From Trueperaceae bacterium (GTDB lineage: Bacteria > Deinococcota > Deinococci > Deinococcales > Trueperaceae), in NCBI GenBank assembly GCA_965215565.1, contig CBDCDZ010000004.1, positions 1 to 64,000 on the forward strand: 64,000 nucleotides of DNA. The letters are read 5' to 3'. The position numbers are program-made. Each line of letters starts with the position of its first letter. Within the stretch, counting starts at the first letter, position 1. Of the stretch, positions 51,001-63,000 are shown in pieces.

Positions 51001-54000
51001 GTGTCGCCAAGGCAACGCGAGAGTTGCGCGCAACTCTCGCGTTAGAGCTTATGCAAACTTCGGCCCGTAGTCATGCATAAGAATTTTGCGAATCCGAGGT
51101 AGGAAGCGATTAAAGAACTAGATACCTCACTGCAACTTATTCGATATAAACCGCCAATGATCGAAAGTGGAATTTATCCCATATCGTGAGCGGTCCCGAT
51201 CAAACAGGACTTAGTTTTCTCTAGCCCCTTAGAAGTTCTGCTAGATAGCGCGTCACGCCCAAGGCGAGGCTCGGAAAGATGCCAATGAGCAGGGTGCCTA
51301 AGACGCTCAGACTGAGCGAAATGACGTAGCTCGGTCGGTTGGGTAGACTCACCTTGACCTCGGGCTCTTTGAGGTACATCTCCACAACAGGCACAAGGTA
51401 GTAGTAGAGCGCTAGCGCGAAGTTTATTGCCGCGATGACAACGAGCCATACGAGCCCGTCCGAGAGCGTCGCTTCTAAAAGTAGCACCTTGCCCGCAAAA
51501 CCCGCTAGAGGTGGAACACCTGCGAGTGACAGCAACGATAGCGTGAGTGCAGCAGCGGCAAAGGGGGAGCGCTGCCCAAGCCCTCTCAGTCCATTGATGT
51601 GGTCGGTGCCGGTCAAGCGCTCTAACTGCGCCACCACCACGAACGCCCCCAAGTTCATAAAAAGGTACGCCGCTAAGTAGTAGCCCGTCGCGTCGAAGGC
51701 ACTCTCAACTCGCCCGGCAACGGCTACCGCCATCAGCACGTAGCCCGCTTGAGCGATGCTCGAGTACGCTAAGAGCTTCTTGAGCCGTGTCTGCCGCAAC
51801 GCTGCGAAATTCCCCAGGGTCATGGTTAGAGCCGCGAAAATAGCAACAGTGAGAGGCCACGCCGCCATACCATCTGGTAGAGCTAAGAGCAAAAAGCGCA
51901 GAAAGGCTGCGAATCCAGCGATCTTCGGTACGACGGAAAGAAAGCCCGCCACAGGCGCGGTCGTACCGCTGTACACATCAGGAGCCCAAAAGTGAAAAGG
52001 CACAATGGTGATTTCGAAGGCGTAGCCAATTAGGATCATGCCGAAGGCGACGGCAACCCAAAGCCTATCCGCACTACCTAAAGCCTGCCCAATAGTGCGC
52101 AGTTCCAAACTCCCCGTCAGCCCGTAGAGAAAGGTCAAGCCGTAGGCCATGACTGCCAATGCGACAGCGGCGTAGATGAAGTACTTGATGGTCGCCTCGT
52201 TCGTGCGGCGGTCTTTGCGGATGAGCGTCACAAGGATGTAGGACGCTAAGCTAAGCATCTGGAAGAAGAGGACGATGAGCCCCAGGTCGAGAGCTGAGCT
52301 AACCAGCATCGCTCCCAGGGTCGAGAAGAGCAGCGCAATGGCGGCGTGCCCCTCTTTGCCCGTATCGCGAAAATGTCCGTTGATGGCTAAAAGCGATAGG
52401 AACGAACCTAGTAAGATGAGCAACTTGAAAACGTTGCCGAAGCCGTCAAGTGCGTAGGTTTCACAGAAGACCGTCTGAGATTCCCAGGGAAGCATCCGCA
52501 CCGTAAACGCCATGGCTATTAAAAGCCCAAACGCCGCCACCCATACCGGGAGTTGCTGCCAACGTCCCTTTGCTAAGCCGGCGACGGGCACGAGCACCAA
52601 GCCTAACCCCGCTACGATAAGCTCGGGGATAATCGCCCACAGTTGAACGCAGCTCACGCTAATCGCCCAGTTGCGCTAGGAACGCCGTCGCCCGCTCGAT
52701 GACGGCGAGAAACGGTCCCGGCACGATGCCGATGGCGAGCGAGAGGGCGGCTAAGGGGATGATGGAACTCGCCTCGAGCGGCTCCAACTCCCCCACCTCC
52801 GGCATATCTTCAGGCGGCTGTCCCATCAGCAAGAGGTTTAAGACCTTCAAATAGAGCCCCGTTGTGACGATGAGCCCAAACAAGGCGAGCACCGCCAACC
52901 ACGGGCTCACCGCGAGCGTCGCGCCTAAAACTTGAAACTCCGCGACGAAGCCTGACAGAGCAGGCAACCCGAGCGAGCCGAACGCCAAGAGCCCCAACAG
53001 TCCGCTGTAAAGAGGTGCACGTCCTAAGAGCCCGCCGAACCGCGCCATCTCCCGCGTGCCGGTGTGATGCTGGAGTACGCCCGCGAGAAAGAACATCCCG
53101 CCCGTCAAGAGCCCGTGGCTGACCATCTGCAAGACCGCACCATTGAGGGCGAGTTGCTTCACGCCTGTGTCAGAAGAGAGCCCCCATACCGCTACACCTA
53201 ACATCACGTAGCCCATGTGATTGACCGACGTATAGGCGATGAGCCGCTTGAGGTCGCGCTGCGGCAAAGCGGCGAGCGCACCGTAGACGAGTGACACGAG
53301 CGCCAAGACCATCAAGAGCCAAGCGTACTCTTGCACTACTCCCGGCAGCGTCGGGATGAGCACACGCAAGAGACCATACGCGCCCATCTTGAGCTGAATC
53401 CCGGCTAGCATCACGCTCCCCTCGGTAGGCGCTTCGACGTGGGCGTCAGGGAGCCAGTTGTGTAGAGGCACGGTGGGTAGCTTGACGCCGAAACCGAGGA
53501 GCAACCCTAAGAGCACCCAGAAGCCCGCCGCCTGCCCTACAAAAGGTTGCGCGGCTGTAATCGCTGATAGCGAAAAGCTGCGCGTCCCTACCGAATCGCC
53601 CGTCGCGAGGTAGAGCGCCAAGAAGCTCAGCAACATCGCCAAACTGCCTGCACGGGTATAGAGAAAGAACTTCAAGGCGGCGTAGCGGCGGTTCTCGCCG
53701 CCCCAGATGCCGACGATAAAGTACATCGGCACGAGCCCGACCTCGAAGAAGAGGTAGAAGAGCAGGAGGTCTTGCGCAGCGAAGAGTCCTAAAAGACCCG
53801 TCGCCATCAGCAAAAACAAGAAGGCGTGCTCTTTCGCCCGTTCGCGTTTGGGGAGGACGTAGAGCATCGAGAGGCTGAGTAAAAGTGCGGTCAGGACGAT
53901 GAGGGGCAGTGAAAGCCCGTCCACCGCCACGTCGTAGCTCGAGCCAATACTAGGAATCCAATCCGCGACGGTGCGCCACTGCAAGCGTGAACCTGTCGGA

Positions 54001-60000: not shown

Positions 60001-63000
60001 TGGTCTCGATGTGTTGCTCGAACAAAAGCGGCGCGAACGCCTCGCTCGCCAAGAAAAAGGTCAGGCAGCAAGTCGCGACGACCAAGAGGTAGGAGATGAG
60101 CAATCGCCCGTAGAGGTCGAGGTCGCGCCACTTCAAGCCCCTTATGAAACTAGGTCCTCTCACGGTGTGTCCTCGCTGAATTTATAGCCTACGCCGCGCA
60201 CGGTGAGCAAGTAGGTCGGGCGGTTGGGGCTCTGCTCGAGCTTCTGCCGCAAGTTCGAGACGTGCACGTCCACCACGCGGTCCACGCCTAAAAAATTCTC
60301 ACCCCACACGCGGCTCAAGAGGTCGTTGCGGCGAAAGACGCGCCCCGGCTGCGAAGCGAGCGTCACCAAGAGGTCAAATTCTAAGGTGGTCAGCTCGAGC
60401 GGGTTTCCGTCTAAACGCGCAGTGCGTTTGTCTAGGTCGACTTCTAACGCACCTTGTCGAATGGTCTGACGCACGTCCGCCGACGCTTCACCCCGCCGTA
60501 ACACCGCCTGCACACGGGCGACGAGTTCGCGCGGGGAGAAGGGTTTGGGCACGTAGTCGTCCACACCCGCCGCGAAGCCCGCCAATCGGTCCGGCTCTTC
60601 TCCTTTGGCGGTGAGCATGATGACCGGCGTGGGACGCTCTAAACGCAACCTCTTGAGAAATTCCAACCCGTCCAGATGCGGCAACATCCAGTCCAACACG
60701 ACGAGGCGCGGAGAGAGGGTGAGGGCTTTCTCGAGCCCACTTACCCCATCGGTTGCCACCTCGACGGCGTAACCTTCGCGTCCTAAGTAAGCTTGGACAA
60801 TTTTAACGATGTCGGGGTCATCCTCGACAATGAGGATAGGTGCGGCCTTATTCAAAGGGCTCATCCCTCTATTATTGCCCTAAACTGCTGCCAGCGGCGT
60901 TGGAGTTGTTCTCTCAAGAGGTAGAGGATAAGCAGTGCGTCTAGCGTCAGCTCGAAGACGAAGAACTGCCGTCCGAAGTGCGCAGGGTCCCAGTAGGAAA
61001 TGGGGCTCGAGAAGCGAAGCGACCAGTCGAAGGGAAAGAGCAACAAGGGTCCGTCGCTATTGTGTGTGAGGATGTCGATGAGAGTATGCAAGGCGGCAGC
61101 CGCGAAAAACCAGAAGAGCCAACGCTGGACGGTGTTCTGAGTATGACGGTAGCGCCAGAGGAGCGCGAGCCCTACACCTAAAATGATCGGCGCGTGCAGG
61201 AAGTTGTGCGGGATGATCCAGTAAGGGCTGGTGTAGAAGAGCGTCTCCGCCATCCACTCGTGCGCCTCGCTCAAGTTTTCGCCTTGCAGCCACGTGTAGA
61301 GCGTCGTGCCCGACATTAGAAGGTAAATGGGAATATCGGGCACAACCGAACCGACCAAAACCGCCCAGAGCGGTAGCTCAATCTTGCGCTGCCGCTTAGC
61401 GAGCGCCGCTGTGATGATGAGGTGAGAGGGCGTGGTCATAGGAGGATGAGGCTAGTGGTTGTCGATACCCTCAAACGCCTCCAAGAACGCCCGCATCTCG
61501 GTTTCATTCACCTCTTCGAAGGTCTGCTTGCGCTGCCAGGCGGTAAGGGCATAAGGGGTTTCTAGATCTTGGCGCGGCGCGATAACGGTGCGGCGGTAGC
61601 CCTGGGCGACCTCCTCGAGCCGCTCGATATTGGCTAAATTCTCCTCGTGCGTGCCCATCTTGTACCAAAGGATGACGCCGCCGTCCTCCATGTTGTGCAG
61701 CAAAACCTCGTCCGGGACGACGTAGTCGTAAGAGCCCCAGTCAGCCAAATAGCCGACGTGCCAGCCCGAGGTGGGTGGGTTGCTGTTGTAGGCGGGATGG
61801 TCAGCCGAAGTGTCGGCGATGTGCGTGTTGCCCTGGTCGGCGAAGCGTTCACCAGGCAAGTCGGCGCTTTGCACTCGGTTCATCACGATGAAGCCGACGA
61901 TTAAGAGCACGACACCTCCTGTGATGAGTCCCATGATGAGGTTGAGTCGGTTGTTTGCTGAATTGCGCCTCGTTTGTCTTGTTGCCATAAGGGTCCTTCC
62001 TCTTTCGGTGTACGCTGCCTAAACTGTTTAGAAGCAAGGGTGAAGCGTGTCACGTACGCTCTGAAGTATCTCAGCGTAGCAGCGGAGTGTAAAGCCCTTA
62101 TAAAGCTCGAGAGTTTCTGCCCGTTGAGGTGTAGGAGCAGGTATAGTTCTTTTAGAGAGGGAGGTGGGTCGTTGGGAGTTGAGGTGCAAGCAAGTGATAA
62201 ATCAGCCCACCGCGTTCTAGCCTATTGGCACGCGAGCCTCGCCGACGCCACCCTGCCGACCTTAGACCCACAAGGAGGGGAAAGTGTCCCATTGGCAGAC
62301 ATAGCGAAAGGCGTGTTACCCAGCGAGGTCACCTCCAAGCTCCGAGGCGCAGAAACCGCAGGAGTGCAAGCTGAGCAAGCGCTGAGCGTTAATATTATCC
62401 CCTTCGTGGCTCGAAAAGCGCAGCGAGGTCGTGCGAGGAGGGATAGGTTCGTCTGTCCTCTCATCATTCCAGCAGAAGTGAACGCTGACGGAGTGCTCCA
62501 GCCACCCTCCGAAGAGGCGCTGCCCTGGATGCCTCGGACCTGGCTCGAGCCCGTTGCCACGAGTGACGTTGTGCTAGGTAATGTGAACGCTTTAGAAGCG
62601 TACCTGACGACACACCTCTTGACCTTGCCGGAGGACACTGGCGAAGCGTGGAAGGCGCTTCTCCTCTACGCTCAGAAGATGTTGGGGTACGTGTCAAAAG
62701 ATACTTGGCGCGCGGCGCTCGAAGACCTCGACTATAAGTTGCTGGACGACGCCTTCATCGTCCAAGAGGGTGAGGTGAAGAGTTTTGGGAGGAATATCAG
62801 CTTGGTTTACGAGCAGCTCGCGAAACGTCGTGAGCTTCCTGGGCTGGTCCAGACCTATACCCGAGCGGCTCCTACCGAACCCGAGCCCCATCTGAAGCCG
62901 GAGGCGTGGCGAGAGCCCGCAAAGCGTCACCTGGGCAGCTTCGGTAATAAAACTGCCTTGTCGCCTTCGCAGCGAGAGTCGCTCCTCCACGCCTTGCAGA

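Follow-up and report, generated by a model that had tools for sequence, protein, structure and literature searches.

The window, by which is meant the whole 64,000-nucleotide stretch of DNA that was analysed, carries on its minus strand (58557-51221) an intact nuoA-H-J-K-L-M-N operon. It is present besides a complete nuoA-N operon (C4:2678689-2694930, C4 being the contig of the window) and a Mrp operon near C4:2402-2408 kb. Profile matches identify its seven unbroken minus-strand ORFs as NuoA, H, J, K, L, M and N, which bears out the initial annotation, where a second nuo operon restricted to these subunits had been proposed. No second NuoB, NuoC or NuoD was found in the host genome, for NuoI a single extra weak match was returned (E 3e-5), and a search elsewhere in the host for orphan NuoB/C/D, or for the relic gene X that characterizes the sister operon type described below, found none. 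The absence of B, C, D and I inside such loci, previously reported for 29 of them, was recounted for an enlarged set of 128 loci, to which the neighbourhood and gene-content counts refer, and holds for all 128.

The gene content upstream of the operon agrees with the two-component pair and SHOCT protein noted there earlier, comprising a Met-rich SHOCT membrane protein of 79 aa (58717..58956, minus strand), an OmpR-type response regulator with a HAMP histidine kinase (59012..60864, minus strand), and DUF3105 and YdjM-like genes (60861..61988, minus strand). SHOCT genes recur close to the operon at other loci, and comparable kinase/regulator pairs flank it at several Deinococcota loci. No copper gene lies within 10 kb of the window operon; a paralogue of the YdjM gene (49%) adjoins the csp/copZ/csoR cluster of the genome. 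A response-regulator box (AAGCTGAACAT) ahead of the SHOCT gene was dropped as a candidate, since its seven genome matches occur in mixed places, and an Rfam scan over 49-64 kb of the window returned zero matches.

Docking surface and proton axis

The nuoA' gene (58240..58557, minus strand) encodes 105 residues, and alignment agrees with the earlier observation that its TM1-2 loop lacks YE(S/C)G. All 15 canonical rows examined have Glu51 in this loop (NuoA positions being given in E. coli numbering), and in 56 family rows Glu does not figure among the most frequent residues there. For nuoH' (299 aa; 57321..58220, minus strand), the initial annotation had described the loss of both the GP..QP.AD loop and the acidic loop. 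The GP itself proved to be kept, while the helix that follows it is deleted, a stretch of 14 residues that reads NRVGPFGLLQPIAD in the host copy. The acidic TM5-6 loop is indeed gone, and E157 with it. Family-wide, eleven charged residues of NuoH (R46, D63, E157, D213, E216, E218, E220, E228, E241, R286 and R291) and E51 of NuoA have been lost, all of them near-invariant in 15-21 canonical rows, and a new Asp98 is found in TM3 of NuoH' (57/57 family rows). A structure model of NuoH' matches, with low confidence (pLDDT 54), the NuoH fold of solved complex I. The docking loops and charges for the redox arm are gone from NuoA and NuoH, and redox genes occur in 0 of 128 loci, which lends good support to the earlier view that this is no NADH dehydrogenase.

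The central charged axis is intact in M and K and mostly kept in L and N. In nuoM' (496 aa; 52659..54149, minus strand) all eight of the central-axis residues checked are kept, while nuoL' (647 aa; 54169..56112, minus strand), in which the long C-terminal region and last TM helix are present, keeps E144, K229, H254 and K342 and has Glu for K399, a replacement found in 50 of 56 rows. In nuoN' (478 aa; 51221..52657, minus strand), K247 and K395 are kept and the E133/K217 pair has become Gln/Glu, both substitutions being seen in 50 of 51 rows. The window type accordingly resembles respiratory complex I (NDH-1) in all seven membrane subunits, in gene order and fold, in most of its central-axis charges and in that its L, M and N pass the TIGR subfamily cut-offs, and differs from it by the lack of B/C/D/E/F/G/I, the docking loops and the quinone-side charges, by these N and L replacements, and by the NuoJ insert and A/J/K methionine cluster described below. 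The Mrp Na+/H+ antiporter is likewise a redox-free multi-subunit machine with antiporter-like subunits; the window operon, in contrast, lacks MrpE/F/G, possesses NuoA and NuoH, and has its best profile matches among Nuo proteins.

Methionine cluster and NuoJ' insert

TM2 of NuoA' reads FDMEMIFM, in which D79 and E81 are kept and methionines are new at 80, 82 and 85. NuoK' (103 aa; 56109..56420, minus strand) keeps E36 and E72 and has new methionines at 30 and 73, and NuoJ' (296 aa; 56417..57307, minus strand) combines a Met-rich TM3 (QVMMYIGGMLVMILFM) with a retained Y59. Methionine is fixed at J58, J66, J70, A82, A85, K30 and K73 in both the window type and its sister type, as opposed to 0 of 15-16 canonical rows, and J63 is Met in 40/56 and 12/12 rows. 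Enrichment in methionine is confined to A and J (with K in the sister type only), none being seen in H, L, M or N. Met ligands inside the membrane favour Cu(I)/Ag(I). The new positions adjoin the D79(A)-E36(K) proton wire that the family retains. According to the accessible text of bioRxiv 10.64898/2026.01.27.702182, this wire is lined by V58(J) and A73(K) and gated by I63(J).

Between DPGG and the MDMSM-TP motif of NuoJ' lies an acidic insert (56765..57061, minus strand), the composition of which (90 aa) includes 30 D+E, 10 M and 8 H. The original description was of a His/Met-rich insert; its acidic character is the stronger. The insert is presumably located on the cytoplasmic side, to go by NuoJ topology, and is probably disordered, its modelled pLDDT being low; the NuoJ' model as a whole (pLDDT 61), like that of NuoH', is too weak for geometry. 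Among 102 J inserts compared, 75 contain at least five His and 16 at most two, and a heavy-metal-binding motif is present within the insert at five loci, the same domain being found in X of the sister type.

Promoter region, relatives and copper neighbourhood

A candidate CsoR-type palindrome, CCACCCC-ACCT-GGGGTGG (58604..58621, minus strand), is situated 47 nt before the nuoA' start in a region that a run contig covers without differences. It ranks third in the 4.49-Mb genome (18.3 bits, next 14.8) with a matrix trained on the copA and copZ-csoR sites only. The core ACCCC-N4-GGGGT has eight genome matches, three of which are the promoters of copA (whose product passes the Cu-ATPase cut-off), copZ-csoR and the nuoA' operon; in three other genomes, four of six distinct related sites head copA or copZ-csoR. 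Ten nt upstream of the palindrome lies a putative sigma-70 promoter, TTGACG-18-TATAAC (58632..58661, minus strand), which was read by eye and is absent from the consensus-scan list, and the two elements together have the same geometry as the copA promoter. A C-tract/G-tract pseudopalindrome overlapping a promoter is present, in resemblance to the host copA and copZ-csoR sites; the TAC/GTA inverted repeat of characterised CsoR operators, which Streptomyces CsoR requires, is absent. The site instead has CAC..GTG, and the host copA site, with the same letters, also lacks the repeat. Of 119 loci, only 3 have a strict site ahead of nuoA, and a same-genus copy, which is also frameshifted, bears a 6-nt insertion in the site spacer. 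The palindrome may act as an RNA hairpin; its identification as a terminator was rejected, given the lack of a T tract, its absence from the scan list and an unremarkable fold (z -0.9). The operon appears to be served by a separate promoter, located downstream of the SHOCT gene, and may therefore be independent of the two-component pair. From the likeness of these sites we infer that it may be under CsoR-type control, the same signal standing before the copper-export genes of the cell.

For all seven subunits, trees place the window family as sister to an A-X-H type, the grouping for NuoM being based on a quick tree. X of the sister type is a fused NuoB/NuoD relic in which cysteines 63, 64 and 129 are missing (10/10) and which bears heavy-metal-binding domains in four of ten cases; the sister-type NuoJ is short, and N K217 and L K399 are retained. 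The sister-type plasmid operons have the Met positions and the DPGG..MDM motif in common with the window type but keep the relic that the latter has lost, an additional gene between nuoA and nuoH being present in these plasmids and in 0 of 128 window-type loci. Carriers of the operon that are in culture include Methylobacterium/Methylorubrum, Deinococcus marmoris and Rhodopseudomonas sp. BAL398. Partial nuoAHJKLMN operons (‘partial NDH-1 operon 2’) are known from Salinispora, Streptomyces and Kocuria and, in the accessible texts of PMC3314556, PMC6676996 and PMC8622039, likewise consist of membrane subunits only in the order A..H-J-K-L-M-N. Whether they belong to the same family, a question raised by the initial annotation, can be answered in part: they probably belong to the sister type with its extra relic gene. 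The published order A-hypothetical-H-J-K-L-M-N matches that of the sister-type plasmid operons, and Streptomyces NuoH is 77-80% identical to sister-type NuoH among the 120 matches listed of 1735, a list in which neither Salinispora nor Kocuria is named.

Two further relatives have been described. In the available text of PMC3772326, Nitrosococcus oceani Noc0474-0481, ‘NuoAHJKLLMN (C I-membrane arm)’, is transcribed; compared by gene tags, it resembles the window operon in its consecutive A, H, J, K, L, L, M, N with A directly before H, and differs in that the same text interprets it as part of forward complex I and makes no copper link. The nuoADHJKL cassette of Marinobacter atlanticus, as reported in the accessible part of PMC8233155, sits in a copper operon and is co-expressed with copper genes; it too is a complex I-derived membrane cassette, here among copper genes, but includes a NuoD-like gene and lacks M, N and the long NuoL tail. 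It is probably of the sister type, NuoH of Marinobacter species being 59-61% identical to sister-type NuoH. As far as these texts go, the gene order (Nitrosococcus) and the copper link of a related cassette (Marinobacter) are already in print, while a literature search mostly outside the subscription journals found no report of a Met-lined relic-free type or of such an operon headed by a CsoR site.

Copper-type genes occur at 39 of 71 loci having at least 8 kb of flank, compared to 0 of 41 canonical nuo loci (eight of these with 8 kb of flank) and 1.3% of random host windows, this background stemming from a first neighbourhood tally and the remaining neighbourhood counts from a redone one; the CsoR and HMA search seeds are not exclusive to copper. 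The ten copper-adjacent loci of 29 counted earlier have in this way become more numerous, although per lineage the link is seen in only 10 of 34 clusters (85% NuoH identity) or 6 of 23 (80%). Of the sister-type loci, 11 of 13 have copper neighbours. One plasmid copy is located in a Co/Ni/Czc island, and CDF genes adjoin two loci. Taken with the CsoR-type site and the A/J/K core methionines, this enrichment makes the tie to copper stronger than first thought.

Proposed function and alternatives

With a proton-coupling site rebuilt in methionine and a DNA signal of copper export, the operon probably uses the proton gradient for copper handling and not for respiration; ion transport by the complex, and the choice of ion, are what we infer from these features. 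Our tentative reading, with a probability of roughly 0.45, is that this redox-free membrane-arm derivative is a copper-induced, proton-motive-force-driven Cu(I) exporter, running in reverse. A rise in cytoplasmic Cu(I) would cause CsoR to leave its site and the operon to be expressed, upon which the acidic His/Met loop of NuoJ (at times a heavy-metal-binding domain) would collect Cu(I) and hand it to the Met cluster of NuoJ TM3, NuoA TM2 and NuoK TM2/3. Proton entry via L/M/N would alter how E36/E72(K) and D79(A) are protonated, thereby turning the TM3(J) gate and releasing Cu(I) outside, with NuoH, severed from quinone chemistry, as scaffold or lid. Such a complex could have arisen in three steps, each still represented today: first the Fe-S ligands went while a metal-binding B/D relic stayed (sister type), next the relic disappeared as well and the metal-binding domain is found in NuoJ (basal members), and last came the NuoN and NuoL charge swaps (crown members). 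CusA, an HME-RND Cu(I)/H+ exporter in which a proton-coupled Met relay is established (accessible text of PMC8092243), offers a model of how it might work, pairing an intramembrane Met relay with a proton relay, while being unrelated in fold and family. The host already has CopA, CopZ, CsoR and a Csp, CsoR being encoded at C4:2367068-2367385, so that a seven-subunit exporter looks redundant.

If the Cu(I) exporter reading is true, the best-studied respiratory proton pump has been recycled as a mobile copper-handling transporter across at least ten phyla, one that annotation regularly mistakes for NADH dehydrogenase or for a marine adaptation. Its family would also represent a natural experiment on how complex I is coupled, a matter of dispute: the connection between the quinone site and E157(H) has been removed, D79(A)-E36(K)-E72(K) is kept, and N E133Q/K217E and L K399E are fixed. 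The complex bears on the question of whether, with quinone chemistry absent, the L/M/N axis is able to work the NuoJ TM3 gate in the reverse direction.

A copper-induced or -gated H+, Na+ or K+ circuit would also fit the regulatory and neighbourhood data. It would export no copper, sense Cu(I) through the Met cluster and the loop, and protect pH or membrane potential during copper stress; L/M/N are Mrp-related with their axis kept, and the charge swaps that N and L show across the family indicate a retuned proton path, yet we regard this circuit as rather unlikely. That the chief substrate is a metal other than copper (Ag, Ni/Co, Zn/Cd), or varies with lineage, is suggested by the His-rich inserts, the Co/Ni/Czc island copy, the CDF genes and the breadth of the CsoR and HMA seeds, but is improbable given that the fixed intramembrane ligands are Met, that the window site matches the copA and copZ promoters and that the named neighbours are mostly cop genes. 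Docking of the host NuoBCDI(EFG) to this operon's product as an alternative membrane arm under stress, giving a hybrid complex I, would account for the NuoD-like gene found in 15 of 15 hosts checked and for the retention of D79/E81, E36/E72 and Y59; in E. coli, pumping can partly dispense with NuoN E133 and K217 according to the available text of PMC13073174, and the Nitrosococcus interpretation points the same way. The loss of the eleven NuoH charges and NuoA E51 across the family, and a sister type whose own B/D relic is devoid of its cysteines, make such docking doubtful.

A pump powered by copper redox chemistry, as suggested for the Marinobacter cassette from co-location and co-expression (accessible text of PMC8233155), gains some plausibility from the NuoH identity of Marinobacter species to the sister type, but is very improbable for a window type that has neither a redox subunit nor the acidic chain linking the quinone site with E157(H); the sister-type relic is also without Fe-S ligands. 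Least credible is the published actinomycete interpretation, in the accessible texts of PMC3314556, PMC6676996 and PMC8622039, of a proton pump for marine or osmotic adaptation unconnected with metals: it names no energy input there, and it is at odds with the copper neighbours of the sister type, the CsoR-type site before the window operon and a host range that takes in many phyla.

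An operon without redox genes and its relatives

The window operon consists of seven intact, tightly packed ORFs on the minus strand, matching NuoA (58557-58240), NuoH (58220-57321), NuoJ (57307-56417), NuoK (56420-56109), NuoL (56112-54169), NuoM (54149-52659) and NuoN (52657-51221); L, M and N all clear the TIGR subfamily thresholds for complex I, with weaker scores to Mrp and hydrogenase models. The host genome also carries one complete nuoA-N operon and one Mrp operon, while additional copies of NuoB, C or D were not found in it, in agreement with the initial annotation of a second, membrane-arm-only nuo operon beside a complete one. 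Run contigs, which are not independent and may represent the source sample, contain parts of the region, including 58553-58918, without differences.

At least 710 relatives of the window NuoH were identified among 8000 scored candidates, with identities of 58-98% among the 120 matches listed, the host's own NuoH being 26% identical. The type to which the operon belongs, T1, was analyzed in 128 loci (63 GTDB genomes, three plasmids, one further Deinococcota genome, the window and 60 metagenome contigs), duplicates (L001-L011, L027, L098, L099, L101-L104) having been removed before counting; the source genome of L055 is marked unpublished. As previously claimed for related loci, the operon contains no nuoB, nuoC, nuoD or nuoI in any of the 128; it also contains no relic of them. 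The order A-H-J-K-L-M-N is complete in 83, the remainder being mostly cut by contig ends. By record titles, the hosts belong to Deinococcota, Chloroflexota, Pseudomonadota, Actinomycetota, Bacteroidota, Ignavibacteriota, Acidobacteriota, Cyanobacteria, Verrucomicrobiota, Thermodesulfobacteriota and Vulcanimicrobiota. Intact matches occur in 9 of 301 genomes of the host phylum, an undercount because a frameshifted copy in the same-genus genome G206 was missed at first and found later. This patchy spread, together with the plasmid copies, indicates that T1 is a mobile accessory module.

The G206 copy (G206:C1:5942-17263) spans the whole block at ~90% identity. Insertions disrupt the reading frames of A, H, J and the response regulator and histidine kinase genes, and there are no indels in K, L, M and N, reflecting either decay or assembly error. 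A Bacteroidota genome (L043:1-16788) has a canonical nuo operon followed, after ~740 nt, by a relic-free one.

The 5' flank of the window operon encodes a SHOCT protein, a histidine kinase, a response regulator, a YdjM-like protein and DUF3105, the last divergent from an open-ended helicase-like ORF (AAA_11/AAA_30; 61974-64000, plus strand). Downstream are three large secreted PKD/malectin/Ig-domain proteins of 751, 1954 and 1261 aa (37873-49915, plus strand), with an integrase-core remnant at 36515-37051. A 685-aa fusion of GGDEF and a terpene-synthase C-terminal domain (22751-24808, minus strand) is divergent from a cytochrome P450 gene (24873-26267, plus strand) and is followed by a GAF-GGDEF-EAL gene, and an FAD-dependent aromatic hydroxylase (29630-31343, minus strand) is apparently split into two ORFs, adjoined by IS remnants at 31517-32837.

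Docking residues, proton path and methionine core

Residues were compared in E. coli numbering. NuoA E51 and NuoH R46, D63, E157, D213, E216, E218, E220, E228, E241, R286 and R291, near-invariant in 15-21 canonical rows, are lost across T1. NuoA lacks the YE(S/C)G loop, as first reported; NuoH, described as lacking its GP..QP.AD loop, retains GP itself and has the following 14 residues deleted. The operon is real and widespread. With the redox genes missing from every T1 locus and the docking motifs lost, it is by its own parts not a respiratory enzyme, which supports the earlier statement that it is not an NADH dehydrogenase.

Within the membrane, NuoA D79 and E81 (56/56 T1 rows), NuoK E36 and E72 (51/51), NuoJ Y59 (53/56, the remaining three being gaps), all eight NuoM residues checked (50/50), NuoL E144, K229, H254 and K342, and NuoN K247 and K395 are retained. 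A new Asp is found in NuoH TM3 (57/57), and charges are swapped in NuoN (E133Q and K217E, 50/51) and NuoL (K399E, 50/56). Basal T1 members retain the NuoN lysine (5/5 read) and Lys or Arg at the NuoL position, so these swaps arose late; in E. coli the swapped positions form part of the proposed coupling chain (PMC9271201), and NuoN E133 and K217 are reported to be partly dispensable for pumping (PMC13073174).

Methionine is fixed at J25, J58, J66, J70, J138, A82, A85, K30 and K73 in T1 and in its sister type, T2, and occurs at none of these positions in canonical rows. Core Met content in T1, T2 and canonical rows is 5.8, 5.3 and 2.3% for NuoA and 8.4, 9.7 and 2.5% for NuoJ; H, L, M and N are not enriched. 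J63 is Met in 40/56 T1 and 12/12 T2 rows. According to a structural study, the residues that surround the water wire from D79(A) to E36(K) include V58(J) and A73(K), and I63(J) gates this wire (bioRxiv 10.64898/2026.01.27.702182). The new sulfur ligands therefore lie on the single retained stretch of the E-channel.

The NuoJ insert, parsed in 102 of the 128 T1 loci, measures 32-221 aa and lies within a DPGG..MDM motif, which is collapsed in T2; by NuoJ topology the insert would be cytoplasmic. Described earlier as His/Met-rich in most loci, it has at least five His in 75 of the parsed loci and two or fewer in 16. The 90-aa window insert, poorly predicted in the structure model, is more acidic than His/Met-rich, with 30 acidic residues, 10 Met and 8 His. 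Five loci (L025, L078, L172, L176, L177) carry a CPMHP heavy-metal-binding motif inside the insert.

Copper association and candidate function

A palindrome, CCACCCC-ACCT-GGGGTGG (58621-58604, minus strand), lies 47 nt before nuoA' and 10 nt after a putative promoter read by eye (TTGACG-18-TATAAC). Host copA, which passes the copper-ATPase cut-off, has the same layout (TTGAAC-17-TATAAT, site 12 nt later). Of eight matches to ACCCC-N4-GGGGT in 4.49 Mb, three precede nuoA', copA and copZ-csoR, and the nuoA' site ranks third in the genome at 18.3 bits (next, 14.8) with a matrix built solely from the copA and copZ-csoR sites. Matches were found in three of five related genomes searched, four of six distinct sites heading copA or copZ-csoR, and in five T1 loci nuoA lies within 255 nt after csoR. 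Counting against CsoR regulation, a strict site occurs 5' of nuoA in only 3 of 119 T1 loci, and the G206 site has a 6-nt spacer insertion, one of that copy's many. A second CsoR-family gene (G000:C4:2710215-2710499) with a C-N-C pattern, perhaps a persulfide sensor, has a different palindrome upstream. The pattern before nuoA' is similar to the CsoR consensus of Streptomyces, except that the TAC/GTA repeat of the latter is missing (PMC3902906).

Neighbours within 10 kb were tallied using as seeds Pfam-annotated flanking proteins (145 representatives scanned of 555 clusters) and annotated plasmids. Metal-handling genes accompany 49 and copper-type genes 39 of the 71 T1 loci flanked by 8 kb or more, CsoR-like and HMA matches not being copper-exclusive; when loci are grouped by NuoH identity, 17 of 34 clusters have metal-handling and 10 copper-type neighbours at 85%, and 8 and 6 of 23 at 80%. 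Copper-type neighbours occur at 11/13 T2 loci, at 0/41 canonical operons (of which only 8 had that much flank) and in 1.3% of random 13-kb host windows. The copper neighbourhood initially noted is weaker by lineage than by locus, and no copper-type gene lies within 10 kb of the window operon. A paralogue of its neighbouring YdjM gene sits next to the host csp/copZ/csoR genes, however, and at other loci copper genes are again accompanied by DUF3105, YdjM and the two-component pair.

From the observed anatomy we infer an energy source, a substrate and a direction: by analogy, the complex may be a copper-induced Cu(I)/H+ exporter (probability about 0.45). Copper would induce the operon, the NuoJ loop would feed the Met cluster at A/J/K, and inward proton flow through L/M/N would work a gate at NuoJ TM3; CusA offers a model for proton and Met relays (PMC8092243). 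A copper-gated H+/cation circuit, which would use the same site and Met cluster, is an appreciably weaker candidate. Transport of another metal is improbable, the palindrome being shared with copA and copZ-csoR. About as improbable is a hybrid complex that would recruit the redox arm of the host: NuoD is present in 15 of 15 hosts checked, but the docking residues are lost. A copper-redox pump, given an operon devoid of redox genes, seems more doubtful still, and osmotic adaptation, the role (marine or osmotic) ascribed to the actinomycete operon (PMC3314556, PMC6676996, PMC8622039), is very unlikely.

The sister type and published operons

T2, found through plasmid searches and examined in 13 loci, has one more gene than T1, located between nuoA and nuoH and here called X. 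It encodes a relic of NuoB and NuoD fused together, without NuoB cysteines 63, 64 and 129 (10/10 sequences), and in 4/10 it bears two or three heavy-metal-binding domains. In the NuoM tree, from a quick search with a small sample of 15 canonical rows plus MrpD for comparison, T1 (28 rows, SH-aLRT 99) and T2 (12 rows, 94) are sisters (99). In FastTree analyses T1+T2 likewise separate from canonical rows for each of the remaining six subunits, with one canonical NuoN row inside T1+T2, the MrpA outgroup on the T1+T2 side for L, and unrooted trees for H, A and J.

The A-X-H order is that of the published actinomycete 'partial nuo operon' (PMC6676996), likened to T2 by order, the trees being built from plasmid T2 rows; among the matches listed for a T2 NuoH, those from Streptomyces share 77-80% identity with it. 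An expression table for Nitrosococcus oceani lists the order without a relic under the name 'C I-membrane arm' (PMC3772326), and in Marinobacter, species of which have a T2-like NuoH, a complex I-like cassette within a copper operon is reported to be co-expressed with copper genes (PMC8233155). A phylogenomic survey mentions partial operons without NuoEFG (PMC4453560). The window operon is a variant of a kind already described but misread; the literature searched, which did not extend to subscription journals and most supplements, yielded nothing on the Met core, on the CsoR-type site or on how T1 and T2 are related.

Near one relic-free operon, a 786-aa ORF on the opposite strand (L014:29499-31856) gives a 53% match to X, possibly only a heavy-metal-domain match. 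Furthermore, extra NuoN-like genes lie on the opposite strand upstream of T2 operons on Rhodobacterales plasmids (L016:9136-9651 and L108:10576-11799).
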